This document shows, one piece after another, positions 368 to 59,769 of a DNA stretch of 64,000 bases. The DNA is taken from assembly GCA_039621445.1 (NCBI GenBank), contig CP154954.1:28113037-28177036 (forward strand). The letters run 5' to 3'. This stretch comes from Euglena gracilis (taxonomy: Eukaryota). The notes beneath the pieces were generated by a model. It was not told where the DNA came from and searched no databases. It saw only the letters and a program-made list of their open reading frames with translations. Each line of letters starts with the position of its first letter. Positions within the stretch are counted from its first letter, which is position 1. Position numbers and translations under genes: made by a program.

Positions 368-3300
368 CCGCCATTGCCGAGGCGGTTGGTCCAGAGGTCA
401 AGCGTCCCTTCGCAGGTGTCACTCTACGCCCATTGCCACAAAAAAGGCGTCCCAGCCTGCAAGCAAACCCGCTGTCTTGCCAACAAATGCCCGACTGTTG
501 CATCCAATAGCCCATCCCCTTCCACACTCGAAAGCCATTTGCCAGAGACCCACTCAGGGAAGAAGGTCTTAAAGGTAGGCCCACTTTTCATAAACGCCCT
601 TTAAGCCTTATTAAATTCAAAGCCTCTGGAAAGGGAACCACCATTCCTTAACGAAAGCTTAAAAAAAAAGCTGTTCACGCATATTCAATCAAAAACCTCA
701 AACCGAAGGGAAATGGGCGAAATTTATTCGCAGCAAAAACAGGTGATTAGGTCCTTGACATATTATGGCAGAGCTTGTCAGAATTTTACGGCGAATATAC
801 AAGAGGGGAGAGGTGAGGGATGCCCAGAAACAGCGAAATGCCTGATGTGGGGTGGACCCCCCCACTCCCCCACCAGGATGGGGTGAAGGGAGTGGTCGTC
901 CCCCTCCCCACCCACCACAGTAAGATTTGCAAAATTCGAGCTGAAAATGAAGTCACAAACTCTCGGCAAAAACAAGCTAATTCCAGGGGAAACTGATTTC
1001 TGGCATCGCTGGAAAAATTTTCTGTCGGACACTCGAAAAAATGGGGTTTCCAACTGTTTCGATTCTGACCCCCATTCTATCCTGGGATGGCCCTTGGGAC
1101 ATCCCTCAGAAAATCGACGCCTTGAAATTTTGAAAATGCCTGTAAAAACCTTAACCGGGTCGGTAAAATGAGCCCCCATCAACCCCCCAAAGAAGTATGG
1201 GAGCGCTCAATGCAATCTGCCGCCTCAGATGGCGCTTCTATTTTGATCCCGCCTGGAAGATTTTTGTTGATATTCTTCAGAAAGCCCAGCAAAGTGGAGA
1301 CTGCCCGACCAGGTGCTCCACCGACCATTATGGTCCGGGCCTACCGAACAGACTTCTTCTTGAGACCCCCACCGGGTTGGGTTTCGGCGCAAAGCGCCGA
1401 AATTTTTTGGGAAATGCCCTCAGACGGCCCGATTTTGTCCCCCCCCCCCGGGGTCCAGCGCTGGGCTGGGTGGGTTGGGGACCCCCCCTCCAGCCTGGGC
1501 CCCCCTGGGGGGGGTCCGGTCCCAGACCCACCCACCCACCCCGGGGGGGGGGGGGGCTGCTGGCTTAAAAAAAAAAGCCTGCTACCGACCTCTATGGCTT
1601 TCCAATAAAGTTAATTCAATATTCTTGTGGAACATGAAGAAGGCCCATTTTTAGCAAAGAATGCACCTCTGGGAGCGCCTGTGCAAATGGGTTGGACCAT
1701 GCAGCCGCCCAGAGCTTCTGTTGGGGGGGGGGGTTGCACCAGATTCACAAGGAGTTCGGCTCTGGAAATTGGTCCGTTGCGTTGCTCATTGAACAGGGTT
1801 CAAAAAAAATATATGTTGCCGGCAGGCGGGTAGCAGGGGGGCCCCCCCCCGGGGGGGGGGGGCCTGCTACCCACGACCCTGCACCTGCCAACATGGCCAT
1901 TAGCGCAACATGGCCATTAGCGCACCTAACCCTACTCCTTCAATTATCCCCATAATAGCGCAACATGGCCATGTTGCACAACATGGCCATGTTGCGCAAT
2001 ATGGCCATGTTGCGCTATTATGGGGTTAATTGAAGGAGTAGGGTTAGGTGCGCTAATGGCAGGTGCAGGGTCGTGGGTAGCAGGGGGGCCCCCCCCGGGG
2101 GGGGGGCCCTGCTACCCGCCTGCCATGTTGCCTTGTACAAAAACAATTGCAATGCCATCTCCACACCCAGAAAGACGTTGTTTCACAGTCTTTGGTGCGG
2201 GCGCAGTGACTTCAAGGCGGTGCAGATTGTTCAGCAGAAAAAGCGGCGGTGTCTCCCCGCCCCTCCAGGGCCACCTGGGCAGCCACTCCAGTGACGGGGA
2301 GGCGCCCAACGCAGCCAGCTCCTTCGGCGCACCTTCCCCCAGCTGGTTCGTGCCAGTGGCCCACCCCGGTCCTACACCCGCCAGGCTGAATTTCATTAAG
2401 CTCGTCTCGGGGTTACTTCGGGAGGTACTAACACACCACCCGAGGGGGAGTTGTGCCTGGTCGTGAGGAAAAATTTCCCCCAAAATGACATTTTCCGGCC
2501 TTCGAACCCCCCCTCCCGAGGACTGACTTCAGCTGCTCAAGTAATAACACCCCCTCCGACAGATGAAAGCAAAGAAAAAAAGAGAATAGAATGAGCGGGA
2601 ATGTTGCAAAAATAACAAAAAGGGATGGTTTGGTGCAGAACATATGTCGAAAAGAGTGCAAAAAAATGACAAAATATTGATGATTAGAACCTATTGAAAC
2701 GCTTTTGGGTCGATTCTTGACTTCAAAACTGTTGCCCTGATAATAACCTCCAAATATCACCCTTCCCCCGGGACCCTGACTTCGAGTGTCCAAAAAATAA
2801 CTGGGGGGATATTGTTTGGGGGGTTCATGTGCCCACCCTCCATCCTGGCCGCAGTAGGGTTTATCATTAGCAAGTTTGATGATTACCTATCAATGGTATT
2901 ACAAAGCGAAGAAGGCGCCCCAGGGCAGACGAAGCCCTCAGATCTGACCCCCACCCTGGGTTTGACATTAAACCAGGTTTTGAGTAGTGCTGAGCTCTTA
3001 ATGGGACATGCATGTGATGGAATGCCGAAAAGACTAGCATTGCAAAGTTCGCGTAATTTTTAATTTACAAATTACACTCTTTCAATTTACGGTGACTTTC
3101 AATGATTTTACGGAACTTTCTGAAATGACAATGATAATCCCCCCCATACACCCCATACCCGTTTTATAGGATTTTTTGACTTTTTTTTACCCATTTTAGA
3201 GCCAAACTCCATGGGTTTCGGGCCCAAAACGGGGCGCAGGGTCGAAAAACGCTCATTTTTGGCTGAGAAACAGGTTTTCCGGGTCTGGGAGGCCAAAAAG

Positions 3301-6300
3301 AATCGTTTCGAACAAAAAAAAATTCGATTTTTTTCGACTTCTTTGACCCGTTCCTGGCCAAACTGCATGGGTTTCGTGCAAAAAAAAAAAAACGGGGCGC
3401 TGGCGGGTCGAAAAACGCTCATTTTCGGCTCAGAAACAGTTTTTCCGGGTCCGGGAGGCCAAAGAACATTGTTTCAGGCAAATTTAACCAAAAATGACCG
3501 AAAACGGCCCAATCACATCAGGTCCAAACTGTACAAAACGGCCAAAATCGGCCAAAAAAAATGACCGTAACTCGAGCTAGGCGGGGAGATGCGGGGAAAT
3601 CAAAATACTGTTAGATAGGGCATTTTAAGGGCTTCAATTTAGGTCTCCAGACATTTCCTTTGATTTTGCTTCATTTTGAGATATCTTAAAAACATCGATT
3701 TTTTTTGACCCCGAAAACAGCCCAAAATGGCCCCTGAAATGGGCCAAAATTGGCCGAAAAATGGCTAACTTGGTAACTCGGTAACTCGGTAACTCGGTAA
3801 ATCGGTCAGGGAAAATGGCTGTAACTCGGGCTACACGAAGAATTGGGGGAAAAATAAACCATGGTTGGATAGGACATTCCAAAGGCTTCAATTTTGCAGT
3901 CCGGACATTTTCTTTGATTTTGATTCATTGTCGAGATATTTTGGAAACCCCGATTTTTTTACCCTAAAACGGCCCAAAAAAACCCCCCCAAAATGGCCGT
4001 TTTGGGCCGCAAAAGCGCGCCGGAACACGGGCCAGGCGTGTCGGCGGCCAAAACGGCGAACGGGGGCGATACAGGGCCTCCGGGGGTGCATTTCGTCAGA
4101 CCGACATTTCCAGAAATAATGTACGTTTTCTCGAGATATTTTCAAAAAATCGATTTTTTGACCGATTTTTGGACCCCGGCAAAATGGCAAAGTCGGAAGA
4201 GGGGGGGGGGGGCGCCTCCACCTTCTGAACAGTGGCTGAATTACAGACCCCAATCATTATCTGGTGCACATTAAAGTCCTGCCGGAGGGGAATGAGAGTC
4301 TGCGGCCTTTTATCGGCATCGTCCGGCCCCCCTCGCCCATGAATGAGGGGGAGGGAGGGACCTCCTAAAACCCCCACCTCTAACCCCTGGGGGGTTGTAG
4401 GTGGGGGGGTCGCTTGAGCTCTTATCTCTTTATGGGTAAGAGCGAAGCTTACCCCTGGGTCCAACCCCCCCCCCTCCCCTCGGGCCACCTCGGGAACCGG
4501 CTGATTATCACCATGATCCTGGCCCGGTTCCCGGATTTTTTTTTTCAGTCGCGAGCGACTGGATTTCTAGTTTCCGAATGCCCCCCCGAACCTACTCTGC
4601 CCCCCCCGGGGGGCGGGCCAGTAGTTAATCCGGGGGGTCAGAATAGTTTTTTTGTGTTAATGATGGAATAGGGTCAGGTGCGCGACTTAGGCTTAGGGTT
4701 AGGCCTAATTTATAGACGGGTGTTCGGTGTACAAGTTAGGCCTAACCCTAAGCCTAAGTCGCGCACCTAACCCTATTCCATCACTAACGCAAAAAAATTT
4801 TTGACCCCCCGGATGAACTACTGGGCCCCCCCCCCGGGGGGGCCCAGTAGTTTCGGGCTGCCTTCCGAATCACCTTCGTTTGACCCCCAACTCCCCGCCA
4901 GGCCCGAGTTATTCACGCACGAAGGCTATGAAAGGGGGTTCCACCCTGTATCTGGAACATCCTTAGCTCAGGCCTTGATTGTTTTCCTCCACACGGCCAT
5001 ATGGGTTCGGAGCACTGGCCGAGGCCCAGCTGGAGCACCACCGTCTGCAACTGACGCATCTCCCGCAGCTGCGCCAGCCAACAAACCCCATCGGGCCCAG
5101 GGGACAGGTTGGAGCATTGGTGACAGAATACCTGTGGGGTCCTCGCCACAGGGAGTGCCCGTATGATTGGACAGGGGGAGTGCCGACGAATCTAAATGAA
5201 TAATTTGGTTTGATATCCAAGGGTTGATATTGGCAGCTTATTACCCAGGAGGCCAGGCCCACTAGTGTGGGATACGGTTAGGGTTACGATTTGGCCCAAA
5301 AGTAGACCCAATTTTGTCCTCCACAGTGGGAAAAGGGCAGCTCTATGGATCAGGCTCTGAATGAGCGAGTTGCACAACAGGGGTTTCCCAAAGTTTCAGA
5401 TTTTCACAACAGGCTTTCTCTTGCGCGCCCACTGCAAAAACAAGTCATGATCTAAACCATCACTTCAATGTCAAACAATCGTCGGCATTGATTGGCGGAA
5501 ACAATGATAGCCATGGCCACTGCCCTCTGCCCGCGGTGGAGCTGGTTCTGGTTCAGGTTGAGGGCCAGAGAGCGCAGGGACGTGGAGGCCCGGAGGCCGG
5601 CGAGGGCCTCGGCGCCGTCCGGCCCGAGGTGGTTGCCGGACAGGTCCAGGCGGAGGGTGTGGAGGAGCGGTGCCTGCGCCAGCAGCCCGGCGGGGGCGGC
5701 CTCCCGCCTGCGGCAGTGGGGCCCATCGGGGACCTGGCCGGCGGGGGGGGGGGGGGCACACCAACCCGAGCCCGTCTGTCGCGGCCATTGAAACGCCGCC
5801 ACTGTACAAACAGAGCTGGAAGTTGGAAAGTCACAGCGGTCACACACGGGGTACGGATCCCTCGTTTGGGTATGGCAGAGGCCGCCCCCCTCGCCAGCGC
5901 CGCCGCCCCGCCGGGGCCGATGTGGGCCCGGGCGGCGTCGAGGGACAGGGTGCCGAGGCGGGCGGCGGTGCGCAGCCCCGCCAGCGCTGCCAGCCCGCCG
6001 TCCCCGATGGGGTTGCGGCCCAGGTTCAGGTGCCGCCAGGGCCGCGGCCGGTGGGTCGCCGGCAACACCCGGCACAACACTCGGCCGCAATCGACAAGGT
6101 CTGGCGAGTGCACCGGGGCGGAGGGGCCTCCAGGCAGGGATCATCATTTTTCAAACGCGCCAAAACCTTAAATGTTTTAAAATGCAGCTTAAAAATATGG
6201 GCAGAATTTTCTCCGACTGAGCAAAAATGAAAGCGCAAAATCTCGGCAAAAACAGGCCAGCTCCGGGGAAAAAATGATGATTTCTGGCATTAAAAAAATA

Positions 6301-9300
6301 AATAAAAATATGGTTTTGATTTTTTGATTTTGGACCTCGTGCAAAATCAAAAATGTTGGTTCGATGCCCACACAGCCCTTGGACAGCCCTGAAAAATGGC
6401 TCCTTAAAACGCCTTAATGGACAGGGCTGAAAAAATGCCTCCTTAGCGCCTTAAACCGTCTTTGCCTGTCTCCAGCGGCCGGTGGGCAGGGGCCAGCTCG
6501 TTGGGATCGGCAAGAACCCGGGCACTCCAAACCCAGGGTCAACCATGCCGCGGCCTGAAACCCGTCCACTGTCCAGAGCTGGGTTGGCGACAGTCACAGC
6601 GGCACCCCGGGGGGGCAGAGGGCCCGCCCTGGCCGCCGGTGGACCGGCGATGTGGCCCGGGGGTCGAGGGAACCCCAGGCTAGCAAATGCCATCGCGCGT
6701 CGCAGAACTGTCCACTATCCACAAACTGAAAAAAGTTAATTCAGCAGCCTCGAAAAACATATGCACTCAGGCCTCCAGAAATGTGGGCCACCGGCACCTG
6801 GCAAACAAACGGGCCTCAAAACTAGACAATGATGTCCGAGGCGGATGGGCCTCCAGGCAGGGATCACATTTTTCCAAACGCGCCACAAACCTAATGAAAC
6901 ACTTAAAAAAGGGTCTTAATTTTTTTTGAATGTTCCACCGAATTTAAAAAATCCATCAAATGAACACAGCACAAATTAATGAAAGTCGCCCAAGTAAAAT
7001 CCACATTAAAGATGTTTTGACCCTTGATTTCCATCTGAAAATCAAAAATGTTGGTTCGATACCCCACAACCTTGAAAATAATAAAGCCAAAAAACGGCTC
7101 CTAAAATCAAAGGTAAGTATTAAACAAATCAATAAAAGCCTGAAAGAAGGCCTAAAAAATAAATTATAATAAAAAAAATGCCGTAAATTTTTGAGAAAAA
7201 AAATTCCCTTAAAAAATGCCTGGCTCCCAGGCTCCTTTTCAACAACCCCTATGGGTGCCTTGTGCTGTAGGTGCCATACCCCCGCAAGGGTTGTGACCTT
7301 CCTAAGAAGCGTGGTTGCTCCCCCTTTCTTTTTATTTCCCATGCCCTGCGGACTGGGGGAGCTGCTGGGGGCGGGCCTGGGGGCCGCCGCCGGCCCTGGC
7401 CGCAGCGTGTGCAGTGCTGGGGCCGCCCCCAGTCCAGCCAGCGCTTGGGCCCCCGCCACGCGCAAGGGGGTTCCCGTCCAGCGGGCTGGGATTGCCGGTG
7501 GAGGGGGAGGGTGGGGGCTCTGGCAGCGCCGGGCACCCCGCTGGCCGGGCCGATGTCGGTTTTGTACACGTCCAGCGACAGCCACTGGAGGCCCGGCATG
7601 TGGGCGAGGCTCCGGCCCGCCGACCTGCCTGGATTCGGTGCCCCCCCCACCACCTCGGGATTGGGACATAAACGGGGATGCCACCACTCCCTTCCGCTGG
7701 CTCTTGTTCACTCTCACAAACTCTGGAGCATTTTATTTGTCCAAGGACCCAAGCCCGTTGAAGTAGAATGAAAAGGGTGGCTGGAAACCTGCCTTTCAAC
7801 AGAAATCTGCCAATGCCAAGCTCAACTCAAACCTCAGCAGAAGAATGCAAATTATCAATGAACCGAGAGGGAAACGGGGGGGGGGGGAATAACTGATATT
7901 GGAGGCCATCAGAGAAATTGCAGGAAAAAACTGATATCAGGAATGTACACATTTCTGCTGGAAGGACACGATTCTGAGCTACACCCCGAATAGAAGTAAC
8001 TAATAATCACGTACTCCTGCAAAATTTTTCAACTGCTCCAGAAATTTTGCAACATTGTTTGGCATTTTTTCCAACAAAATATTACAAAATTATACTTCTT
8101 CTTATTTTGGAAACATGCTGCTTCCACAACATATGCAATTTCGTTGGCCCAAAATAAAATGACAAAATTTGCCAAAAAATTTCGTCTTGGGATAAATCTG
8201 GTCCAAATTCAACAAAAATAAAGAAACCCACCTTTGCAACGAATGGACCGGCCACTGCCGAGTTCTCCTCGTACCGAATCACAACTTTAATGTTGCACAC
8301 CCCAACCAAGAAGATTTGGGAGGGAACACCCCCCATGCCACCCAACCACACCCACAGCGACAACCCCACAGGAAAAATGAAACACGTACGAAAAAAAGGA
8401 CTGTGATACCCCCTTCGTTTTTATATCATCCAGAAATGGCCGGAAAACTCATGAATTTGGATGATCAAATTTTAGCAAAAGAAAAAAAATGGAGTGGGAA
8501 TTTGCAGAAAAAATTGCGGAAATGGGGAATTTGAGGGCAAAAATTGCAGGAAAAAAAAAACCCGGAGGGTGGAACTGCTGGGAAAAATTGTGGGAAGGAT
8601 AGATTGCAGGAGATATTGCGGGGGACAAAAAGGAAACAATTGGCAAAAAATAAAAAAAAAAAAAAAAGTAGGATTCAAAATTGGCTGTCAATTATTCCCC
8701 TAGGGAGGAGGAATTTTCAGGAAAAGTTTTACAAATTTAAATATCAGTCCTCTGTGCCGCTTTTCTCTTCACCTTCAACATTTCCCAATGCTTTTGATAC
8801 CCCCTCACCAAGGACTGGAAAATACAACGCCACCAGGCACCCAAAGGCAGCTTTATGGCAAACCACTTCAAGGGAGACCACAGGGAGGGCGGCGGCCGCC
8901 AGGGCAGAGGCCCCGATGTCCCCAATCTCGTTGTGGGAGAGGTCGAGGCCAGGCTTTTTTTTTACCAACCCCGGGGGGGGGGGGGGTCGGAGTGCCTTTG
9001 TGTGCCTTCCCAGGCAGGCACCCCCCCCCCCCGGGGGGGGTGGGGACCACCTTAAAAAACGGCCTGGTCGAGGCCCAGCCCCCCGAGGCGCTGGAGTCCA
9101 GCCAGCTCCGCCGCCCCGAGCGGCCCCACCCGATTGTTGTGGAGGTCGAGCATCGGCGGCAGCGCCCTTTGCGAGGTCCGGCATTGGAGCGGACGGCGGT
9201 CGCAGTGAGGCAAAGTTCTCCCAACTGGATGAGGATTCTATTTTTAAGCGCCCGGGGGGAGGGCGGCCCCCCCCCCCCCCAGCCGGGCACAGGACCCCCC

Positions 9301-45444: not shown

Positions 45445-46510
45445 ACACGGTGGGTAGCACAGCTTCACCCAACCGTGCCCCGGGCCCAGGGAAACGTCTC
45501 TTTTGGCCCTCACAAGAGGAACCCCCTTGTGACTCCCTGTGCCGCCACAGGTCGCGGGTTGCTATACTATGGGTGTTATGTACAGAAGAGAGGAGTGCCG
45601 AGTAACTGTGAAGAGTGCCGTGGTTAGCGGTAAGAGGAAGATGAGCAAAGGTGACCTTCAATATATAGTGGGCGGGCAGGGGGGGGGTGTTTGTACCTCC
45701 TTTGCCACGGGATGGCGTGTTTGTGTCGGGATTTTGCTCTTCTTGCCGTTGGATGGCATGTGTGCGTCAGGTCCTTAGGTGGTGGGTCAGGGAGGGAGTG
45801 TCAGCTTGGGCTTGGGCTGTTTTGCTCCATGGATTCATGGGTTGGGGTTAATTTTTGCCTTGGTCTCGAACATATGGCTACAATGACGATGGTGGCATAC
45901 CAAGGAGAGGATATAGAGGAAATGAAGCGGGTAGGGTTCAAGTGGAGGGGATGGGTTAACCAAGGTCAACAGGTGGCAGGTGGTTGGCAAAGGTGTTTAT
46001 TGGGAATACGGGAGGTGGCAACCGGCAGACAGGTCAATGTCATTTGACAGGTTGGTGTAGAAGCTCCATACCAGTTGTTCAGAGATTTCTTTGGCCAGGG
46101 TTAGCGAGAGTCCTTGCCACACTTCTGCTTCGGTTTGGCGCTGAAGCCAACCCTCCCTTTGCCCTATCAAGGCTTTGAGGAGGGTGGACATCAGAGAACG
46201 GCCTTGTTGCCCCAGGCCGCCAAAGCAATCAAGCACAAACGGGGTAAGGCGCCAACCTCGTCTCGAACAAGTTGCGTCATATTTGCGGTGTTTGTCTGCT
46301 TCTTGTTTTTCTTGCCAAATCGGAAGTTGTGCGGCACGGCTCAGAGGGTTGCTTGGGGTCTGTGTGTGACGAATGGTGACGTCGATGGCGACCGGGCCCT
46401 CACTGTCAAGGCGAGGGATGAAGATATCACCAGGGCGGGAGTTGTCATCAGCCCGTTGTTCTTTTTTTGGCTTGGAATCCGGCACGTTGAGCCAAGGAGG
46501 CAAGGAAGTC
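45445..46510 (-). mobile_element. 3' fragment of a second CRE-family retrotransposon (RLE domain plus 3' UTR)
   Basis: ORF 46503-45997 contains RPGDIFIP...VAIDVTIRH...EADKHRKYDATC...GWRLTPFVLDCFGGLG. Confidence 0.85.
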
Positions 46511-46715
46511 TTGGACCGCTGCTAAGAAAGAACTTCAAATTAGGAATTGATCCTATGGTTTCCAGGGAGAGAAAAGCAGGGACAAAAAAAGGAAAAACCC
46601 GAGAGACAAACCTTTTTAAGAAATAAATATTTTTTTGAATTTAAACTTGCTTACTGCTTTAAATGGCGTTTTGAATGGACGCTGTGGTTTCTGTCACTTT
46701 CAGGGATATTCCAAC

Positions 46716-49700
46716 ATGGAACTCGCAATCCCTGAAGCATCTACAACTATTTGTGTCGGAAACCTTCCCGACTATATGAGCAGGAATCACTCTCCAGTGA
46801 GATTTCTTGCTCTTTTTTTGATTGGTTCCTGTTGTAAACTGCTCGTGAATTCCGCCTTATGTTCAAATTCGCAAACGGTGTCCAACGGTGCATCATCAAT
46901 CACACCAAGGCTGGACACCAGGTTGGTTATGCAAGGTTTGGAACGGCACAAGAAGCACAAGCCGCCATTGAATGGCTTGCGCAGGGCTGCTGAAAATGAT
47001 ATGAAGTTTTATGTGAAATTTTCAACCTGACAGCTTCCCTGATGCTCACGGATACCCGATTGACGAGGACTTCCCAAACACTTTGAAAGTTTTCATGTCT
47101 TCAACTCAATTGCGCGATGCCCTTCCTGGCACCCGACCAAAGCGCCCGCTGGACAATGGTTTTGGCGCACCTGCAGCGAAATTCCCACGTTTGGGGGGAG
47201 TGCACAGAATTTGACAACTGTTCAAATGTGCTTGTGAGAGGCCCAGGTTTCTCTGAGCACTTTTTCTGATCTGCAAAGTGTGAGAACCATGAGGAAGTCA
47301 AATCAACCTGGAACCTCACTAATGGAAATGAACCAGTTGTGATGTTGTTTGATTTTGGTTTTTGCTTGTTCAAAAAATCGGAAGAAACAAAGAAAATTTT
47401 GTTTTTGGCAGGGACTCTATTCTTTGGACAACTTGTCTTTTCAAAAACTGACCAAATGCAGAAGCCCACACCAACCAGAACTTATGGAGAGAATGCGAAT
47501 CGCCAAAACCTGCACGTTGGGGGTTGCTGGATACTGTCTGCCTCGCCTCAGAAGACCACTTTTTAGAGCACTTTTGGTGATTCAAGTCCTTGGTTGACTC
47601 AAAGGTACTTGTTCGCTACTCGACCGCCAGTTTATTGTGAGGTTATTTGAAGGGTAGGGTTAGGTGCGCACATGGCCATGTTGCACAACATGTCCATGTG
47701 CGCACCTAACCCTACTCCTTCAATAACCTTAAATATTCCAATAAGACTTTGAAAAATTTCGGTGGCGGTCGGGTAGCGAACAAGTACTGACTCAACGGAT
47801 TCAAGGTCGTTGGGTTCTTGATTACCAGGACCTTTTTGGCGGTTTTTTCCTTGGAGGAATTTTTGTGTGAAGCGGACGCAACAACAAGCAAGGTAAACCG
47901 TCATTGTCAAAAAAAAGGACTTCGGTGCCCTGAGGTGCTTGGGCCACCTCTTCAACCAAGCCACCTCGTTTCACCTCATGTCAAATTCTGAAATGCCTTT
48001 TGCTGCAGCTCCTGGGTTCATTGGTGGCCGTGGTTTTGGCAAAGGTGCTGGAAAAGGCCGTGGGAAAGGTGGTGCACAGGCTGAATTTCAAGGCAATGCC
48101 GACCGGGGGTTCCTGCCAGGCTGTATTTTAGTCGGGTGCCGACCCCACCCCGGGGGGGGGGGGCAGGCACTCCAAGGCCCCCCTGATCCGACCGTAGGGC
48201 ACATGGCCAAAAGTGCCCTGGCACAACCCCGGCGCCGGGGAGCCAAAAATGGCCTATCCTCAAAGGAATGTGCCTGGGCACAGACCGAAATCCGACCCCC
48301 CCGGGGGGGGTAGTGCCCAGGATTTGATATAAGGAGGGCGTACATGGTTTAGGTGGGGGGGTGTCCCCCACCCCCCACCCCTCCTGGCCCGCAGGGGGGG
48401 CCGGACCACCCCACCTGCCAGGGGGGTCCGGACCGACCCTGGGGGGGGGGCACCCGGGACCCCTCCCCAAAAGGGTCATTTTTTCCTCCGGCACTTTGCG
48501 TCGAAAATTTTTGCATTTTTGGCAAATTTTTGGGTACTTATCTGTTATCGCACGACATACCCCCCCCCTTCGGTTATCGCACGACACCCTTTTTTGGGGT
48601 TATTTAAAGGAATAGGGTTAGGTGCGCACATGCTACGTTGCGCTACATGGCCACGTTGCGCTACATGGCCATGTAGCGCAACATGGCCATGTAGCGCAAC
48701 GTGGCCATGTAGCGCAACATTGCATGTACGCACCTAACCCTACTCCTTCAAATAACCCTATAAAACCTAAAAATAAGGCGTCGTGCAATAACCGAAAGGG
48801 GGGGGTATGTCGTGCGATAACAGATAAGTACCAATTTTTGCCCAAAGAGTGCCCAAAATGGCACTTTTGGTCGTTTTGGGGGGTCAAAAATTTTCGGTCA
48901 CCCAGACCGAGCCACTGTTTAGGTGGGGGGGTGTCCCCCCCACCCCCCCCCCCTCCGGCCCCGGGGGGGTCCGGACCCCCCCCCCCCCACCGTCCTTATA
49001 TCAACCCTGGTAGTGCCTGCCTGAGCAGGCACTCTGGACCAGGGTTGGTAAAAAAACAGCATTTTGGGCACTTTTTGGCCCACGACCTGGCAGGCACTGC
49101 CCCCCCCCCCACCTGCCTAAATCACTCCCAAACCCCCTCCCCCAATTTCAATTTCAGCCTGGTGGTGTAGCCTCCAGCCCCTCATCCGTTTATGTTGGAG
49201 GTGTACCCCATGACTGGGATGAGCCCAGGGAAGTGCCAAGTGTTTCCAGAGCACAGACGCAGCATACTTCCAACACACCCCACCATCCGTTACTTGGGGG
49301 GTCAGGCCCAGGCAATTGCTTAAGCACAGACCAACCAACCCCCCCCCCCCCGGGGGGGGGGGACTGGTTTTTTCAAAGTGACTGACTGGTTTTGGGCCCG
49401 GACCCCCTCCCCCCCGGGGGGGGGGGTCGGCCAGGAGTGGGCAAAAGTGGCTTGAGTGACCCCGGCGCCAAAGGCGCCGGAAAAATTTTTTGGGCCTTAA
49501 ATGGCCTAAAGTGACTGGAAAGTGGCCGTTTTTCTGAGTGGCCGACCCCCCCCCCCCCGGGTGACTGGCTGGTTTTTTGAAAATGAGTGACTGACTGGTT
49601 TTTAAAAAAGTGGAGTGACCCCCCCCTCCCCCCCCCCGGTCGGTAAGCAATTGTATGGTCAGGCCGATCAAGATCTTCTCATGCAAAAGCAAAAATCTTC

Positions 49701-52700
49701 GGTCCCAACCTGCCTTTTGAGCCAAGCCCAATTGCCCGGAGAAACCAACCCACCCAAAAGGGGGGGTCCGCACCCCTCCAGTCCCGGAGAGTGACACCCC
49801 CGCTTAAGAGAGAGTGACACCCCATCCAGGCCCTGGGGGGGGGGGTGGGTGCTGGGGTTTTCAGTGTGACTGACTGGTTTTTGGCCTGGACCCCTCCCCC
49901 GGGGGGGGGTTGGCAAAAAAACCCACAAAACTGACCCAGCCGGAAAATTTTTTTGCAGTTTTTTCATGTTTTGGGCCAAGTTTCCCTTGGATTCCAGAGT
50001 GACCGACCCCCCCCCCCCCCGGGGGGTCGTGGCTGACTAGCTTCCCGAAAAAAGTGACTGAAGGATGGCCAAAACGGGCACCCTAACAAAATCCCTTTGT
50101 GTGTGCACCCAGATGAACTTACCCTCACCCCCCCCCCCTATTTGGCCCCTCCCCTAATTGGCTTATTGGGGTCCCGTTGGATGGTCCATTAGCCAATTAG
50201 GGGGGGGGGGTCAGGCTTATTGGCCATTGGCCGGGGTAACCCCCCCCCTAATTGTCCCCCCCCCCCCTAATTGGGGGTCCGAAGGAGCCCGGCCATTAGC
50301 CAAATAGAGGGGGGGGGTGAGGGTAATGAAGGTGTCTGGTAGGTAAAATAGCCCCTCTGTATGTTCCACAGGGTTTGGCCAAGGGTTTTTATGCTTCTGA
50401 AATGGAAAACCATGGAGGTCGTTTCCACCGACCATATGGTCCGGCCGACCATGGTCGGCCCGACCATGGTCGGCCCGACCTATTGTCAAAAGTCCTTTGA
50501 AAAGGGGGGGGGTAATGCGGTTCATTGGCTACCACCTCCCCCCCCCTAATTGACCCCCCCCCCCAAATGACCAAATGCCCCGGGGAAATTTTTTTCTACA
50601 CACAAATTGTGGCTGAGCCCAGATTTCAGCCTGAAAACGTGTTCAGCCAGGGGGCCCCCCGAAGGGAATTAGGTTAAGAAGTCAGACCTAAAATGGGGCC
50701 TGATTTTGGCCCTAATTTGAATCAAATTTAGGCCTGGCAACCCTGATAACCCTAAAATTTCCGCCTTGGAAAATATAAAAAAATTCAGATGGCGGCCCCA
50801 TGCCGAACAAGTACCACTGACCCCCCTTAGGACCGACTTTCCGGGTTTCTGGGACCCCCCAAATGGTCAAATTTTCCTTTCCGGCGCCTTGCACCAACTT
50901 TTTTTGCATTTTTGGCAACTTTGCCAAAACAGAATTCCCCAAATAATACTCCCAGAATATTTTGGTCCACCAAAGTCCCCGAAGGGGGAAGGGGGGTATT
51001 TGGCGAAAATTTTCGTATTTGTATGTTTGGTTGTGAAATGCAAATGGCAAAACTATCCTTAAACCCCCCCATAGTCCCCCTGGCTTTATATGTAAAATTT
51101 TTTTCGTTGTTTTGGATGATAATATTCATCAAGTTTCTACTTGGCCTCCCGGGGGGGGGGGGCAAGTAGAATGTCCAGGGGGCTCCGCAAAAATTTTGGG
51201 TGTTTGGAGTTCGGCCCAACTTTAGGCCTTACTCAAAGAGGGTTAGGTGTAAAAGTTAGGCCGAACTCCTAACCCAAACCCTACTCCATCAATAACGCAA
51301 AAATGTTTTTGACCCCCCTGGCTGGGGCAAGTAGAATCTTGTTGCTGATTATTTATCAAAGGCATTTACAAGGTTTGGCAATTTGATTAATGTCGCAATG
51401 GTGCTCCTTGTGATATTTGGGAATTTCCAAATTGTTTCATTATAAAACAATGTCAACGGAAGGCTGGCAGGTGTGATGGACACATGGCACTGGACACCCA
51501 TTTCCAACAACCAAGCGAGATTCAAAGTGGCTCTTCTCTTCAATTGACTGCCCTCCAGTCCCTGTTTGAAGGATTTGGAACAATCACCAAAGTGCAGCTC
51601 ACTCGTGGAAGCAACCCAGTTGGGAATACCCAGGGATGTTTGCAGTGGAGGCTGTTTCTCATCGATTCCATTGATAGGGAAAAGGTAATGACCCATTCTG
51701 TAACAACTGAGTGTTATACGCTTGCACTGTATCAGAGACCTCGATGATGATTGAGGTTTTTCAAGTTGTTGGTTCACAATCATCACAAATGAAAGATGTG
51801 GTTGACTGAAAATGTCGTTGTGATATTCCAAGGAGGAACCTGCTGCAGCAATGCAAAAGTGTGCTATCCAGTGAAGGCTTTTCTAAACTCAGAAGGCCCC
51901 CCCCCCCGGCGGGGTCACAGACCAGAAATTTTTTTAAGTTTCATGACCCGGTGGATGGGTCCCGGCCGAACCCCCTGGGGGGGGGGCAGGGCGAGTGGGA
52001 ACCATGCCCCCCCGAGCTATTCCCATGGGGCGGGCGGGATTAGGTCACTGTCATAGCACTTTTTATGAAGAAAGTCCAAAAAGTGCAGTCCAAAAAAGCG
52101 CAGTCCAAAATTGACGTTTTTTTTGACGTTTTCAAAAAGCACTTTTTGTCAAAAGTGCTCAATATTGACCATTTGGAATAGCTCGGGGGAGTATGGTGCC
52201 CCGCTGGAGGCAGGGTTTTCTTCTATTCGCGCCGATGTTTTTTTCAGACCCCAAAATTGACCACGAAGGTGCCCCCCCCCCCCCCCCGGAAGCCGAGTGT
52301 TTTGGTCCAGGCCCCCCCCCCCCCCTGCTGGGTCCTAAAAACCCCTCTGACACAGATGGGCTGGAGGCGTTTCGGTTTTCAGTGCGAAGTGCCGAAGAGA
52401 AATGCAAAAGAAACCTCATTTCCACCTCGGCTCACAGCGCCGGAGGAAATTTTTCCCCAGTCTGGGGGTCCCCGGGGGTCTAACTAGTCCATTTTTTCCA
52501 GTGTCCAGCAAAATGGCTAGCCACTGGATCCGCTGAGTTCCTCAAGCAATGGCCTGTTCACAACAGGCGACATTTCCATGATGGTTTACTGGCCAAAAAC
52601 CACAAAACCTGCTGCTTGCTTTACCTGCCGAATTTGTCACCGTCAGTTGATTTTTGTTTAGAATCAGGCACCTGGACACTGAAGCCTGCATCTCTGATGC

Positions 52701-52827
52701 CATTGCATTCATCCACTTCACAACCCCAGAGGAGGCCCAAGGCGCCATCCAGAGCATGAACAACTACCCGCTGGATGAGACCCGTCACCTCGTGGTGCGG
52801 GGCAACACCAGCAGCCCACGAATCTAG
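46716..52827 (+). CDS. Two-RRM RNA-binding protein, paralog 1 (RRM1 RBPMS/MEC-8-like, Gly/Arg/Lys-rich linker), 7 exons
   Basis: Exons 46716-46777, 46837-46978, 47047-47201, 47995-48073, 49167-49222, 51546-51627, 52702-52827. Product: MELAIPEASTTICVGNLPDYITAREFRLMFKFANGVQRCIINHTKAGHQVGYARFGTAQEAQAAIEWLHGYPIDEDFPNTLKVF...GGRGFGKGAGKGRGKGG...SVYVGGVPHDWDETALQSLFEGFGTITKVQLTRGSNPVGNIAFIHFTTPEEAQGAIQSMNNYPLDETRHLVVR. RNP2/RNP1 motifs occur twice. Pyrimidine tract plus AG at 46702-46703. Confidence 0.9.
47604..47788. mobile_element. Palindromic GG-ended MITE
   Basis: GGTACTTGTTCGCTAC / GTAGCGAACAAGTACT; TSD GACTCAAA/GACTCAAC. Confidence 0.75.
48318..49009. mobile_element. hAT-type MITE nested in an intron
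   Basis: CAGGATTTGATATAAGG / CCTTATATCAACCCTG; perfect TSD GTAGTGCC. Confidence 0.85.
48533..48832. mobile_element. Palindromic GG..CC MITE nested in 48318-49009
   Basis: TIR GGTACTTATCTGTTATCGCACGAC; perfect TSD AATTTTTG. Confidence 0.85.
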
Positions 52828-54761
52828 GCACCAGCTTGTTTTTGGCTTGCTTCTCTTGGATGGTGGAGGGATCATAAAGAAACTCAACTTGTGGATATCT
52901 GTTTGCCCAAAAGACAATTTTTTTCAGCCCAGAAACATGTCCGCCCACATAAAAGATTTCACTGCATCCTAGCAGACCCCCTTTGAGGGAGGGGGCTGGA
53001 CTGCAACCGGCAAAAATTGGCCAGTGGAGGTTTCTTGTGAACCCCTGGACAGCCAGTGAAAAAAAACACCATTTGTTAAACCGAAACCTTCCTTGAGGGT
53101 CAGGGGTCATGGGGGATATGTGCCAAAAAATCGCGAAAATGCCAAAAGTAGCCTTTTAAAAAATTTTCGGCGCCTTCAGCACCGAAAAGAAACCCCCCCT
53201 CCCTCTTATACCCCCCCCCCCACTTATAACCCCCCCCCCACTTATAAACCCCCCTCGGGCCGACCAACCAAACCGGGACTTATAACCCCCCCCCCCCCGG
53301 GAAGAAAAACGAAAGTACAATTTTTTTCGGCCGCAAACCACCAAAAGTTGATTTTTTAGCAGTTTTTTTTGAGACCAACCATCAAATTTGGCAAAAATTG
53401 CCAATTTGGGGGGGTTTCGGGGTCATTTTTGGGGGTCGGATTTTCACCAACAATTCCGGGACTTAACTCCCCCCCCCCTTCGGCCGACCAACCAAACCGG
53501 AACTCCATTAAACTTTCGGGGGTTTATCAGTGGGAGGGGAGGTTTATATCCCACCCCCCTTGAGGACCTGGGGGGGGGGGGCTCAGTGGGGGCTCAGCCA
53601 GACCCGCCTGCCCTGCCTACCCCCCGGGGGGGTCCAAGACTAAAAAAAACCCCTGCTTCCGGCACTTTGCACCAGGCGCACAATTTCAGATATGTGCCCC
53701 CCCAGGCACCCTGAAAAAGTATTTTTGGTCCACTTTGAAAGCTTTACCTGCAAGCCGGCATAGGTCACTGTTTGGGAGGCAAACCCAGAAAAAGGCATGG
53801 ATATTTGAACTTTGAGGAGACTCCAAATCTGAAGGAAATATACGACATTTTGGCCTTTTTGGCAGGTTGGACCAACCTCGGGGAAAAGTGAGTGGCCCCC
53901 CGGACCCCCTCCGGGGCGCCCCCCAAGGGGGTGGGTGGAGGGGACCCCTCCCCCCCACCGGAAGCCGGAAGCAGGGCACCTCCCAAGGTACTTTGGAAAA
54001 TGGATGGACAGTTCCCTTCCTCTGTTCCCTCTCGTATTTTAAAAAGAAGCCTGCTCCTCTCCTCTGCATTGTAAAGCACTCAAATTGAGACGCCATAGCA
54101 CAAAGCCAAGAATGATGATCAAGGTATTTCACATATGCAAGCGACGGAGGTTGTATTCTGCCAAAGATACCTCTGAAACACAATCGAGACCGTGATGTTA
54201 CTTTTGTTTTCAGTTTCCTTCCTCGTCTGGGAAGCCCAAAGAACGTAAAAACCATGTGGGATTTGACGCATGTTGATGGCAAAAGGGTCACTCTCAAACC
54301 CATTTGATTTCCTCTGCATGATGTCTTTTTCTCGCGGAAAGCATTGTTCAAATTTCATCAATGGGAGTAGGAAGTGAAAACATTATCTCCAGCCAAAAAG
54401 AAAGCGAAGCTTTCGTTGGGGGACAGTGGTTTTTTGGTTTAAAACGCTGTTGTCAAGTTCTCCATCCATTCATTTTTTTGAGATGTATCTTTTCAATGGC
54501 TGCGGTCACCACTTGCCGCAACTGGTGCTGCACGCCATCCCGAACCTTTCTGAACTCCCTCTTTCCTCCGTTCGTTTGCTGTGCGTTTTAGGCCACAATT
54601 ATCGCCTGATGCCTGAAGAAGGCCTCACTGTTCGGACGCACCATCACTGATGAAGGCGACGGCTCACAGGCACCACCGTCGATCCTCTCACCCCTTTGTT
54701 TTGTGCAGTTCGCATTCCTTCGCGTGAGGTCCAGGGATGAACAGGTTTCCCATGGTTGGCA

Positions 54762-54845
54762 GGCATCCGGGCTTTCACCAGGCATCCGGGCTTTCACCAG
54801 GCATCCGGGCTTTCACCAGGCATCCGGGCTTTCACCAGGCATCCT
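54762..54845 (+). repeat. 19-bp minisatellite (GGCATCCGGGCTTTCACCA)x4
   Basis: Four exact tandem units seen directly. Confidence 0.9.
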
Positions 54846-56096
54846 CGGGGGGTAGTCCAACCCCCACCCCTTTGACCGGAGGGGTCTGAAACCCCCCCCC
54901 CCCCCGGGGTATCAGGTGAGCGGTAGGGGGGTCTGGACTATCCCATTGTTTCAGGACCACACCACCCCAGGGGAGTGGCCAGGGCGGAACGGGAATCGGC
55001 CAAACAGCCAGGGTGGTGGGTGGGGGGGGGGTCGACCCCCCCCCCCCCGCCCCCTGCATGGTGGGTGGGGGCTGGTTTGGAAGCCAAAAAAAATGCCATT
55101 GAAAATCCGAAAAATGTCAGTAAAATTTGACTGTGCCAAAATTTGGTCCACTTTTTTTTTGACGTTGGTTTTTTTCACCCCCCCCCTAAGAATACCAATT
55201 TTTAACCCTGAAAATTTTGAGATTTCTTCTGAAAAAATGTGGTTTTCATCAAAAAATCATGTGTTTTGAATTCATTTTTCAAAAAAATTTGAATTTTTTT
55301 CGGCCAAAATCCCTTTTTTCCCGAAATCGGTGAAGATGCTGTGGTGGGTGGGGGGGGTCGACCCCCCCCCCCATGCCTTCCCGTTCTGCCCCGGGAGTGG
55401 CTGACTGATTTTTTCGGAGTGACTGACTGGTTTTTGGCCCTAGACCCCCCCCCCCGGAGGTGGGGTTTGGCCAAAGTCCTTTTTTGAAAAGTGAATAACT
55501 GGCTTTTTGAAAGTGGAAAGTGACCCCCCCCCCTTGGGGGTCGGCAACCAATGGTATGGTGTGGACCTCCCCCCACCCCCTCCTCGGCAGGTTCCAAAAA
55601 TAGCAAATAGGGCATTTCCCAACAAAAATTGGCTGCCTCGCGCCAAAACCAATTTTCTGTCCGAGAACCCCCCCCCTGGGGGGGTCTGGCCCAGGCACTT
55701 TAAAAAGCTTTCAAAAATTTGTCTTGGAAAATTTTCAAAACAGATTTTAGGGACCAACAAAGTCCTCTCCAGTGAAAAAGTGCACAGCCCCGGAGCTCCT
55801 CAGGGGATTTATGCAAAGCTTGCATATTTTTTTTTGCATTTTTGCTTTTTTTTTGCCTTGCATATTTGGTGAGCCTTGTTGCATCTCCCCCCCCCCCGTG
55901 GTCCAATCCCCTCCTCCCCAGCCTTCCCCCCACAGCCCTGTCCCGCTCTCCTCGTTTGACTGGATAACTCCCCTGTTCATCCTTTCCAGTGGGTCGTCAA
56001 AAAACGCCCTGATTAGCACACTTCAAAAGCTTTTATTCAACACGGTTTCAGTTGCATTTCCACCCTCATTTGCTCTCACAGGTACGCAACAATATT

Positions 56097-59000
56097 ATGG
56101 CATTGGTTGAAGCATCGACCACCATCTGCGTCGGAAACCTCCCAGACCACATATCCAATGGCCCCCCATTTGTGAAAGGAAACCTTTTGCTTTCCTTCAG
56201 GCTGATGTGACAGTTGGGTGACCATTGCCCGCAACACCACGTGAATTCCGCTTGATGTTCAAATTTGCTGCCGGAGTGCAACGATGCATCATCAATCATA
56301 TGCAGGGGACCACAGCAATTCTTCTGATGGGGGCTTTTGGCACCTTGGCTGGAGACATTCACATCATTTGAGCCGAAGTGGACCCCATGCCTGGCGGGAT
56401 CCAGCCAGCCAGCAGCCCCCAGACCCCTCCCCCCCCCCATCGACGAGTTATCTTTTTCCAGCCGCCCAAAGGGCGTGTGGACGGTGACGGATTTTTGGCT
56501 TTCGGGGGTGCAAAATTGGCCAAAATGGGCAAATAACGGGTCGGCTTTGGGCTGGCCAGGCAAATTTTGGATCGAAAAGTTGATTTTTTGCACAATTGGC
56601 AGTTTTTTGGGCATTTTTGGCTTTTCCCAGGTTCGACCACAGGTTGGCCCAGTTCCAGCCAGGGACTCCCCCCAACCTCCCCATATTGCCCTACAGCCTT
56701 TTTCCAGCCAGCCCAAATTTTTCAGCCTCTGAGCTGGACCCCCCGGGGGTGGGTCACCAAGCGACGGGGGTCGTTTGGATTTTCACCTCCAGATTTTGGC
56801 TCAAGAATGCTAACCAAGCTGGATTGGGCTTTTGGGGGACAAGCTGGACCCTTCCACAACCCAGGATTGGGGGGCCCAGCGATTTTTCTTAGGCGGTTTT
56901 CTCAGGGGTGCTCAGGCCTTTTAATTTGGAAGACCCCCCCCCCCCCCCCGGAACTCCCTGGGAGGTTTCGCCATTGCCAAAAATTTTGGGTGGAAATGCC
57001 CTCAGATGGCCCGTTTTGGGGGGGGGGGTTGCGTTTCGGCATCCCTGCACACAGCATCCACGGGGCGCTTGCTGAGTCCCCTGGCACCACCAAGTCAGGG
57101 CACCAGGTCGGTTATGCAAGGTTTGGCACCCCGCAAGAGGCACAGGCAGCAATTGAGTGGCTCTGCCAGGGTCATCCTCACCTTCCAACCGACCAAGCAC
57201 CGGTTCAAAGCCAGAGGCGCATGTTTGGTTCAGCCCACGACGTCCTCTCTCTCAATTCAAGAAAACCCCCTCAAGAGTGATGTCTCACCAGGTTTTCCTG
57301 TTCATCCCTATTTTTCTCAGGCCATTTTCCAGCCAATCCAGCCCCTTTAATTTAGTTTGAATGTGAGTTTCTGCATCGTTTGGATGGGACGGAATTCCTC
57401 CAAGGTTTCGGGCGGCAGTGCGAGCATGCCCCTGCCTCTCACGGCTACCCTCTCGATGAGGATTTCCCCCAAACGCTGAAGGTCTTCATGTCCTCCACGC
57501 AGCTGCGGGATGCTCTGCCGGGCACTGGGATGAAGCGGCCCCTTGGGCAGGCTTCTTTTAAACCCCTCATCTTCTTCAGTCTTTTCGGGGCAGGATTATT
57601 CATGTCTGTCGGGTTTTGCAGACCCGGGGGGGGGGGGCTGCTGCAGCTGGGCCAAAATCAGCCGCAGCAGCACCCCTCCATCTGGCCCTGACCACTCCTT
57701 AGTGTGTGTGTCGGCAAAAAGAATTTTGTGTATCCTGTGTATCGCCAAAAAAATTTTTGTGTTCCCCTGTGTATCACCATAAAAATTTTTGTGTTCCCCT
57801 GTGTATCGCCAAAAGAATTGTATATTCCTGTGTATCCCCATTTTTCTGTTATTTGTAATTGTCCTCCCTCCGCAGCCATAAAGCAAATGTGCTTGTCTTC
57901 TTTCACTTCCTCTCGGGAGCGGGCGGCGTTTGCAAAGCCCCGGATACAATTGCCGCACCCATACCCCAAATCACCTGCTTTTTTGTTTTGTTTTTCTATT
58001 TTGTTTTCTTGGGGTTTTTTTCAAAACAGCTGCAAAAATCGACGAAACGGACAAAAGGAAAAATCAACACGTGCTAGAGGCAGGCTCGCCGAATTGCCTC
58101 TTGGCCGCACGAGGGAGTAGCACCCCTCCCCCAATCACAGCAGCAGGGTGAGATTCCCTGCCACGCTTGGGGTTGAGCCGGGGCCAATGTCCACAGAATT
58201 TTGCGGCAATGGTGTCAACAAATCAACAAATCACAATTTTTGTGAGTTTTTTTTGTGTATTCCGAAATCGTATTTGTGTATCCACAAAAATTTTTGTGTA
58301 TCCTGTGTAGCGCCAAAAAAAATTTGTGTTCCCTTGTGTATCACCACAAAAAATTTTTTGTTCCCCTGTGTATCGCCAAAAGAAAATTTGTGTATTCCTG
58401 TGCATCTTGGATACACACTAAGGAGTGGTCTGATCTGGCCTCACCGCCGGGCGAATCCCAACACCTGCCCTTTTGGGTCACCCCAACAGCCGGGAGGGCC
58501 GAAGGGGGCTTCATCTTTCTTCCCCCTGTCAGGCACCAGGACCCAACACTAACCCTGCGGGGAGTTCGCTGGCGGCAGTAAAATTTTTTTCAATGACCAA
58601 AAATTGGTCAAATATTTTTGTTCCATTTTGGCCACGACAGAAAATTTTTGGGAAATGTCCGGAGATTTCCCTTGTTTTGTATTGACCGCTAAATTTTTTT
58701 TCTTTTTGCACCATTTTTTTGGCCATTTTTTTTACCACCAATCCCCCCTGGTATTGGAAGGTGCCCGGTGTGAGAATGCTGAACGGGTGGCATTGTCCTC
58801 GAAGAAAATCAGAGTGGTTCACCTAAATCGTTCTGTGTGATTCTGTTTTGCATTGCCACGTGCTTGAAAAAAGCCTTCCGCGGACAATGGATTCGGTGGC
58901 CCGGCGTTCAAGATTCCCCGTGGCGGTGCCTTTGGTGGCTTTGGGGGCGGCTTTGCCTACGGGGCCCCGGCGGGCTTCCCCGGCGGCCGCGGGCTGGGCA

Positions 59001-59769
59001 AGGGCCGGGGCCGGGGCAAGGGTGGTGCAGTGGCGAGCCCCACGTCTGTCTACGTCGGCGGGGTGCCCCATGATTGGGATGAGAGCAGGACGGTCGCCCC
59101 ATTCCCATTCCGGGGGGGGGGGTGACTCTGAGGAATTAGTCCACGTGTCCTGCAGCGCTGTCGATTTGCCGTTGTTTCCCCCATCCGCCAGCTCAGCAGG
59201 AGATTTTCAAAACTGTCGATATCTGGCTAGTTTTTTGATATCCGCATCTTTTTCACACCCGTGGGCCCTGATCCGGCCGGCACATTGGAATAGTTATCCC
59301 GGGGATCCCAGTGGGAACCCCCAATCGGTTTCCTGTTTTGGGGCCAAATCACGGTTTTCTATAGGCCCAAGTGAGGGGCCGTCTTCCGTCCAAATGATGA
59401 GCCCTGCGAAGGTGCCCAGTTGGTCCCCGGTTCCCATTTCGCCCATCACAATTGGCGGCTGCCGTCCTGTCCCCGACTGCTCTGCAGTCTCTCTTTGAGG
59501 GGTTCGGCACCATCTCCAAGGTGCAGCTGACCCGAGGCTCCAGTCAGGTTGGGCGTTTGCTGTGCTCTTTTGGTCGGTTCGGCCCGCCGATGGTGCCCGT
59601 CAGGCCTCGCCGACCCCAACCTGGTTCCAACCCGGTGGGCAATATTGCCTTCATTCACTTCACCTCCCCGGAGGAGGCCCAAGGGGCCATCCAGAGCATG
59701 AACAACTACCCCTTGGACGAGACCCGGCACCTTGTGGTTCGGGCAAACACCAGCGCGAAGGGCCTTTAG
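56097..59769 (+). CDS. Two-RRM RNA-binding protein, paralog 2, 7 exons
   Basis: Exons 56097-56152, 56233-56299, 57089-57163, 57440-57544, 58883-59082, 59475-59541, 59629-59769 (TAG). RRM domains are nearly identical in protein sequence to paralog 1. Acceptor-like TCTCACAG ends at 56081. Confidence 0.9.
57693..58427. mobile_element. TIR element with subterminal tandem repeats, inside intron 4 of paralog 2
   Basis: CACTCCTTAGTGTG / CACACTAAGGAGTG; repeated TGTGTATCGCCAAAA motifs; TSD unclear. Confidence 0.6.

Follow-up and report, generated by a model that had tools for sequence, protein, structure and literature searches.

The stretch of Euglena gracilis DNA discussed here, 64,000 nucleotides of contig CP154954.1 (GenBank assembly GCA_039621445.1, positions 28,113,037 to 28,177,036 of the forward strand; "the window" below, numbered from its first letter), contains an RNI-type leucine-rich-repeat (LRR) gene on the minus strand and two tandem paralogous genes on the plus strand, all of them interrupted by introns without canonical borders (Table 1). 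Twenty of these intervals had been delimited by an earlier, sequence-only reading of the window, and three more are added by RNA reads. With a probability of roughly 0.93, the listed intervals are ordinary nonconventional (NC) introns of a Euglena-type euglenid host. The window adds no novel type of feature: the NC intron is already known, its 3+5 spacing included, and the window introns differ from the published ones in nothing of kind. What the window does offer is a set of natural introns, some of them verified by RNA, several of which fall outside the published code.

Split reads were sought over positions 44000-62000 in two raw RNA-seq runs, one of which, X21, is the source of all read counts given here, and in the contigs of two further runs. 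Fifteen joints were listed, with 92 further joints beside them; the fifteen comprise the 11 plus-strand introns of the sequence-only reading, three NC introns absent from it, and one shifted variant. All 11 plus-strand introns are confirmed, with 232-1291 split reads each, and mostly recur in the contigs of the two further runs. Clean open reading frames (ORFs) of 233 and 236 amino acids result when the RNA-derived junctions are applied to the two paralogs. Reads at both gene starts carry a loose end, ATTTTTTTTC, before position 46703 (301 reads) and before position 56081 (463 reads), which matches the conserved 3' end of the E. gracilis spliced leader (SL), printed as TATTTTTTTTCG in PMC4778363; the presence of this tail at both genes identifies the host as a Euglena-type euglenid. 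No back-joined reads occur among the 15 listed joints.

The coordinates and borders assigned earlier to the 20 introns agree with the ends read in the sequence. Three variable bases and CAG(G) usually stand at one end, and (C)CTG followed by five bases at the other, so that an inverted repeat starts at +4 and ends at -6 of the intron. GT-AG, GC-AG and AT-AC borders are absent from all 20 at every slide-equivalent position, as had been asserted for GT-AG, and the three additional NC introns likewise have no canonical ends (0/3). Identity as conventional U2-type spliceosomal introns was rejected on the same ground, GT/GC-AG ends being found in 0/20; the only intron with GC-AG ends and a C/T-rich tract is the previously unlisted 59770-62986. 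At 17 of the 20 junctions the boundary can slide by at least 1 nt, and the 3+5 split is therefore often not unique; a slide leaves the sum of the two offsets unchanged, which means that the sum, unlike the split, is fixed by the reads. This sum is 8 in 13 of the 14 RNA-verified NC introns, in line with what had been predicted for most introns, and the remaining one is 3+4. The two junctions that do not slide, 46778-46836 and 57164-57439, are exactly 3+5. With the 5' and 3' offsets each varied from -6 to +12 and an intron counted wherever its stem had at least 5 pairs, 16 of the 20 introns fell in cell (3,5) and the other filled cells lay on the same diagonal, with off-diagonal counts of 0-4, mostly 0-2. 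A purine opens the downstream exon in 20 of the 22 introns with a sum of 8, and C opens it after 46979-47046 and 57164-57439.

Table 1. Genes and introns of the window. NC, nonconventional; SL, spliced leader; UTR, untranslated region. Split reads are those of run X21; "unlisted" marks introns absent from the sequence-only reading, and paired triplets are those at +4 to +6 and -8 to -6.
Feature	Positions	Strand	Length	Triplets	Split reads	Remarks
NC-type intron	2349-5020	-	2672 nt	CAG/CTG		Reading frame only; covering homologue alignment gapped
NC-type intron	5093-5532	-	440 nt	CAG/CTG		Three pairs, mismatch, GGG/CCC; ungapped homologue alignment
NC-type intron	5687-5892	-	206 nt	GGG/CCC		13 pairs from +4/-6; ungapped homologue alignment
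NC-type intron	6032-7401	-	1370 nt	CAG/CTG		Homologue alignment
NC-type intron	7458-7546	-	89 nt	CAG/TTG		Stem and fold; homologue alignment
NC-type intron	7613-8897	-	1285 nt	CGC/GCG		6-pair helix begins at +3/-5; homologue alignment
NC-type intron	8945-9069	-	125 nt	CAG/CTG		Folds; homologue alignment
NC-type intron	12399-13310	-	912 nt	CAG/CTG		Flanking 8-mers 6/8; ungapped LRR alignments
NC-type intron	16949-20567	-	3619 nt	CAA/TTG		Stem 8 pairs; N-terminal part, same or neighbouring LRR gene
Gene 1	46703-54694	+				233-aa protein, two RRM-like halves (named by eye); SL acceptor 46702-46703; ATG 46716; stop 52825-52827; poly(A) after 54694 (poly(A) loose end)
NC intron	46778-46836	+	59 nt	CAG/CTG	821	GAG-CAG/CTG-TTGTA, non-slidable 3+5; stem 9 pairs, 2 more possible outward
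NC intron	46979-47046	+	68 nt	CAG/CTG	591	Stem 5 pairs; slide 1
NC intron, unlisted	47201-47993	+	793 nt	CAG/CTG	236	Slide 3
NC intron	48074-49166	+	1093 nt	CAG/CTG	400	Reported as 48068-49160, slide 7
NC intron	49223-51545	+	2323 nt	CAG/CTT	566	7-pair stem from +5/-7
NC intron	51628-52701	+	1074 nt	CAG/CTG	232	
NC intron, unlisted, gene 1 3' UTR	52833-54120	+	1288 nt	TTG/TGA	611	Reported as 52832-54119, slide 2; stem 13 pairs including G.U; offset sum 8
NC intron, unlisted, gene 1 3' UTR	54160-54497	+	338 nt	AAA/TTT	491	Reported as 54159-54496, slide 2; stem 8 pairs; offset sum 8
Gene 2	56081-63016	+				Paralog in tandem, 236 aa, 78% identity with gene 1, likewise with two RRM-like halves (named by eye); SL acceptor 56080-56081; ATG 56097; stop 59767-59769
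Gene 2 3' UTR		+				Continues past the conventional intron; 63016 is the end of the listed span
NC intron	56153-56232	+	80 nt	CAA/TTG	1291	Position as 46778-46836 in gene 1
NC intron	56300-57088	+	789 nt	CAG/CTG	1148	Stem 8 pairs; gene 2 only
NC intron	57164-57439	+	276 nt	CAG/CTG	975	Non-slidable 3+5
NC intron	57545-58882	+	1338 nt	CAG/CTT	305	Gene 1 site uninterrupted
NC intron	59083-59474	+	392 nt	CAG/CTG	254	
NC intron	59542-59628	+	87 nt	CAG/CTG	442	Reported as 59539-59625, slide 4; helix extendable 3 pairs outward of +4/-6
Conventional GC-AG intron, C/T-rich tract	59770-62986	+				Directly after gene 2 stop; not NC

Pairing between +4 and -6 had been claimed for all 20 introns and is found in 18. 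The other two, 49223-51545 and 57545-58882, read CAG/CTT, with a C.U mismatch at +4/-6 and a stem that starts at +5/-7. Inward from +4/-6, 16 of the 20 show an unbroken run of at least 5 Watson-Crick or G.U pairs, giving stems of 5-13 pairs, while in 5093-5532 and 7458-7546 three pairs are followed by one mismatch and more pairs. The stems without CAG/CTG are as earlier described (GGG/CCC in 5687-5892, CGC/GCG in 7613-8897, CAA/TTG in 16949-20567 and 56153-56232), and among these only 56153-56232 is RNA-verified. In 7 of the 18 introns where +4 pairs with -6, the helix could be extended outward by 1-3 pairs. Minimum free energy (MFE) folds pair the ends in six of six short introns and extend the helix outward in five of them; the predicted structure of 56153-56232 leaves exactly 3 and 5 nt unpaired. 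The z-scores of these six folds lie between -2.9 and -3.3 in three cases and between +0.7 and -1.7 in the other three. An Rfam scan of the window gave 0 matches.

On the minus strand the case is made by homology. Relatives of one exon of the LRR gene carry the Pfam domain LRR_6, and the N-terminal region is similar in three relatives (P0001-P0003). A search for longer proteins with exon 5533-5685 returned a best match of 58% identity and no identical protein. LRR homologues with 56-58% identity to one exon align ungapped over 143-163 residues spanning six junctions, and alignments to homologues likewise bridge the junctions of 12399 and 16949 with no gap there; three homologues cross the latter. 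For 16949-20567 a GT-AG alternative at -3/+3 was considered and rejected, as it would remove a conserved 'LS'. The minus-strand junctions, as predicted from the DNA, thus appear well supported, though not proven, eight of the nine by homologue alignment. The LRR gene seems to contain further, unlisted introns between 9070 and 12398, from ~12330 to ~10950 and from ~10870 to ~9150 on the minus strand. The former has no in-frame 3+5 solution and may be either of the GT-AG type or an NC intron cut 3+6 whose GGG.../...CCC stem is bulged; the 3+5 solution of the latter has a stem of just 3 pairs.

Several observations tell against the identification and its register, and most of them concern the LRR gene. 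Its junctions rest on homologue alignments, the RNA reads covering 44000-62000; the gene is GC-rich, with all three frames often open; and in-frame GT/GC-AG alternatives lie within +/-30 nt for eight of its nine introns, 6032-7401 being the one with none in that range. On the plus strand, the RNA-verified intron 47201-47993, which is required for the gene 1 ORF and which the sequence-only reading had left out, has a perfect 12-bp CAG.../...CTG stem and an offset sum of 7, that is, 3+4 after a +1 slide. It contradicts the 'strict' register that had been claimed, and the geometry is accordingly not absolute. One could go further and regard the whole register as an artefact of boundary choice, in which N3-stem-N5 was picked from among many in-frame options; the sliding of most junctions, the several open frames and alternative borders of the minus-strand gene, and the omission of the single coding intron that does not fit would all be expected on that account. 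The sum of the offsets, however, is proof against sliding, and the reads fix it at 8 in the 11 plus-strand introns and in two of the unlisted ones, the non-slidable junctions have exactly the expected split, and eight minus-strand junctions are crossed by homologue alignments, ungapped at the junction. For the plus strand the RNA reads refute the artefact, and for the window as a whole it is scarcely credible.

Seen as euglenid NC introns, the window introns are unexceptional. They share with the published ones the non-GT-AG borders, the pairing of CAG at +4..+6 with CTG at -8..-6, the 3-nt 5' spacer and 5-nt 3' spacer, the purine opening the downstream exon, and lengths from tens of nt to several kb; the likeness extends to positions that vary between close gene copies, to conventional introns in the same genes and to a host with SL trans-splicing. 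Pairing between +4..+6 and -8..-6 had been reported by 2014 (PMC3935182), and sequence logos CCAGG and CCTG were given for E. gracilis in 2024 (PMC11170887). An NC code, 5'-N3-CDG/CH'G-N5-6|R, was defined in 2025 by means of spacer mutants of +/-1 nt, swaps, point mutants and synthetic-intron knock-ins (PMC12501133), so that the experiments once proposed for the window introns, shifting the stem by +/-1 nt and compensatory swaps, are already in print. According to that work, NC introns make up 71.8% of introns in E. agilis, and the code fits 61.2% of them and fails to fit 38.8%. Splicing is lost upon single changes in CAG or CTG, and not every complementary choice of the middle base of the triplet works. 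A 5' spacer longer or shorter by 1 nt abolishes splicing, while the 3' spacer tolerates one extra nt and, with one nt fewer, ~20% of the transcript remains; the exon preferably opens with a purine. Pairing adjacent to the motif is required, its removal in a synthetic intron having impaired function, and fully synthetic introns obeying these rules are spliced (PMC12501133).

Measured against this code, 10 of the 23 window NC introns fall outside the published motif or spacing (PMC12501133), and six of these 10 are RNA-verified. The out-of-code set consists of CAA/TTG (twice), CAG/CTT (twice), CAG/TTG, GGG/CCC, CGC/GCG, AAA/TTT, TTG/TGA and one N4 spacer. The CAG/CTG form accounts for 13 of the 23 by hand tally, against the genome-wide 61.2% that refers to the wider code (PMC12501133). 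The window thus yields a small set of natural out-of-code introns verified by RNA, namely those with CAA/TTG, AAA/TTT and TTG/TGA stems, those with the broken closing pair CAG/CTT and the one with a 4-nt 3' spacer, all of which could be put into the published knock-in assay.

As to how the cut is set, the sequence-only reading held that the machinery does not read sequence but takes its measure from an RNA stem. The positive half of this stands: RNA-verified introns with CAA/TTG, AAA/TTT and TTG/TGA retain a sum of 8, so that the register can be set by pairing even where CAG/CTG is missing. In its pure form, a ruler laid 3 and 5 nt from any terminal helix end with the sequence ignored, the proposal would also account for the non-CAG helices that end exactly at +4/-6, both in the RNA-verified 56153-56232, 52833-54120 and 54160-54497 and in 5687-5892 and 16949-20567, whose junctions rest on homologue alignment. 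Such a ruler should nevertheless follow the helix end, and it does not: the 1-3 outward pairs available in 7/18 introns, the non-slidable 46778-46836 among them, come with no shift of the junction, the first real pair lies at +5/-7 in two introns, one intron has a 4-nt 3' spacer, and the published mutants reveal constraints on sequence, CAG/CTG identity included (PMC12501133). The opposite extreme would be a factor that reads CAG and CTG at fixed distances, the pairing being incidental. It is favoured by the published loss of splicing upon single CAG/CTG substitutions and the limits on the middle base (PMC12501133), by cuts that follow CAG/CTG and not the helix end where outward pairing is possible (7/18, and in the folds), and by the splicing of CAG/CTT introns in spite of their broken closing pair; it is at odds with the RNA-verified CAA/TTG, AAA/TTT and TTG/TGA introns, which have the same geometry, and with the impaired function of the synthetic intron deprived of motif-adjacent pairing (PMC12501133). 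We regard both extremes as improbable. Since neither a helix-end ruler nor a plain sequence code fits, sequence and structure must both be read: the register is set by base pairing together with the identity of the closing triplets, with some tolerance, as follows partly from the introns described here and partly from published mutagenesis.

Each intron has short inverted repeats at its termini, as a rule CAG(G) from +4 and (C)CTG up to -6, which pair in the pre-mRNA and bring the two junctions together. The cuts fall 3 nt upstream of the 5' arm and, in most introns, 5 nt downstream of the 3' arm, a purine following. Judging solely from the published full-length circles, the machinery is probably not the spliceosome; circular products of NC introns were reported by Guminska et al. 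2021, according to citing papers, and the literature has the introns leave as full-length circles, later than conventional introns and without the spliceosome. Natural introns of the window are spliced with CAA/TTG, AAA/TTT and TTG/TGA stems, with the broken closing pair CAG/CTT and with a 4-nt 3' spacer.

The cut may also wobble at a single site. Intron 51628-52701 has a shifted twin of equal length, 51627-52700 (4+4), which also sums to 8 and is represented by 397 reads in X21 against 232 for the 3+5 form; the two give AAC or AAT, both Asn. The twin may reflect a 1-nt wobble of the cut (4+4 vs 3+5) or a T/C allele at 51627.

The two plus-strand paralogs differ in part of their introns. Three intron positions in the coding region are common to both genes and three are private to each (6/12 paralog-specific), and these differences in position fit ongoing gain of NC introns. 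Intron 48074-49166 is missing from gene 2, its flanking 8-mers match at 7/8, and it begins with GCA, the counterpart of an alanine codon that gene 2 retains. At the common positions the introns themselves show modest homology in the pair 46778/56153 and little in the pair 46979/57164, and the double change from CAG/CTG to CAA/TTG is for that reason merely suggestive of covariation. Two of the private introns, 51628-52701 of gene 1 and 59542-59628 of gene 2, are separated by 15 nt of homologous coding sequence (VGN|IAF vs RGS|NPV), which looks like either independent gains or intron sliding. Gene 2 also shows that conventional and NC introns coexist in one transcript: 589 reads continue past 59769 with a sequence identical to that of the window at 62987.

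A MITE (miniature inverted-repeat transposable element) hypothesis and 'TSD-like' repeats (TSD, target-site duplication) have been put forward for NC introns (PMC3935182, PMC11282704). The sequence-only reading went further and took the 8-nt total offset for the legacy of an 8-bp staggered transposase cut. On this account the introns would go back to inserted elements that bore terminal inverted repeats (TIRs) and duplicated 8 bp of the target, and removal of the core together with 3+5 nt would delete one duplicate exactly, restoring the original reading frame. The duplicate would persist in young introns, apparently among them 8945-9069 and the paralog-specific 48074-49166; a direct repeat of 8 bp without mismatch, GCCTCGAC (10 nt with neighbouring bases), flanks 8945-9069. 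We compared the 8 bases left of the core (5 exon and 3 intron bases) with the 8 to its right (5 intron and 3 exon bases). The 20 listed introns give 66/160 matches at shift 0 and 37-53 matches once the right 8-mer is moved by 1-4 nt, and the 22 introns with a sum of 8 give 72/176 (permutation p 0.004). A match of at least 6/8 is seen in three of the 22, 8945-9069 (8/8), 48074-49166 (7/8) and 12399-13310 (6/8), with p 0.006. The idea of a duplication legacy is thus plausible, reasonable and testable, with moderate statistical support that is carried by three introns.

Other facts weigh against a transposon ancestry. The signal comes from those 3/22 introns, and it weakens, with p rising to 0.06, once the intron+1/exon+1 position is excluded. 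Within the 64-kb window no intron terminal sequence recurs at another place beyond the short motif, the matches between intron interiors being only internal dispersed repeats and C-run/G-run palindromes. No DNA transposase was found, a Pfam scan of 8 of the 44 window ORFs of at least 170 aa giving RVT_1 only, and the terminal inverted repeats, 5-13 pairs in 16/20 introns, are short compared with typical TIRs. The 8-nt repeats could instead stem from double-strand-break repair or filler-DNA capture, with 3+5 a property of the excision machinery that has no link to transposons. Break repair was in fact offered for an 8-nt repeat at a newly gained gapC intron of E. agilis (PMC4770533), and the window, with neither a multi-copy family of intron ends nor a DNA transposase, would agree with it. 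Yet the introns bear terminal inverted repeats as TIR elements do, the repeat is as long as the offset sum in three window introns and in the published one, nothing would hold repair microhomology to 8 nt, and Merlin transposons, which make 8-bp duplications, have been reported in E. gracilis (PMC8101967); we consider an origin by break repair rather unlikely. Descent from a TIR transposon family that duplicated 8 bp, which would be the reason why the 3+5 geometry exists, with the machinery co-evolved with a Merlin- or hAT-like superfamily, we rate at somewhat less than even odds. Our literature search returned no paper that equates the offset sum with the duplication length, and none that ties Euglena nonconventional introns to an hAT transposase. 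Should the duplicate equal the offset sum genome-wide, the origin would become testable, pointing to a TIR element with an 8-bp duplication.

The resemblance to Merlin and hAT elements consists in the TIRs and in the 8-bp direct repeat flanking the apparently youngest window introns. Elements of the hAT superfamily make an 8-bp duplication and have CAG-type termini. The window cores start with CAG, unlike the ends of Merlin, which are described as starting with GG, and the window contains neither a transposase (8/44 ORFs scanned) nor a repeated element family. Introners, the MITE-derived spliceosomal introns of Micromonas, dinoflagellates and Fritillaria, likewise have TIRs and a target-site duplication, and their splice sites are fixed relative to the duplication, so that the element leaves together with one duplicate; they are, however, removed by the spliceosome, form multi-copy families and make duplications of 3-5 nt (PMC11282704). 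The window introns differ from introners in their non-spliceosomal ends, in the absence of a family visible in the window and in a putative duplication of 8 bp.

Another point of comparison is splicing by an endonuclease and a ligase. In tRNA bulge-helix-bulge introns and in HAC1/XBP1 mRNA, which are spliced in this way, the cut sites are defined by RNA structure. NC introns are similar to these in their structure-defined cuts, and circular intron products have been reported for them. Neither a bulge-helix-bulge nor an IRE1-type stem-loop motif was seen in the window, though no search aimed at them was made.

Some other features of the window are of lesser concern. Just upstream of gene 1, positions 43548-45416 of the minus strand hold an open frame of 622 aa with an RVT_1 domain (E 7.8e-11), likely a retroelement. 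Palindromes composed of a C-run followed by a G-run, ~8-14 bases each, are found repeatedly, both within introns and outside the genes (for example at 48140-48172, 49335-49430, 50003-50029, 60300-60320 and 8969-9045), and reads are cut or pile up there. A dispersed repeat of ~280 bp (77-81% identity) occurs as several tandem copies within intron 16949-20567 (19686-20233) and again at 3170-3482 within intron 2349-5020, and the interior of intron 48074-49166 matches positions 24306-24749 at 84-97%.

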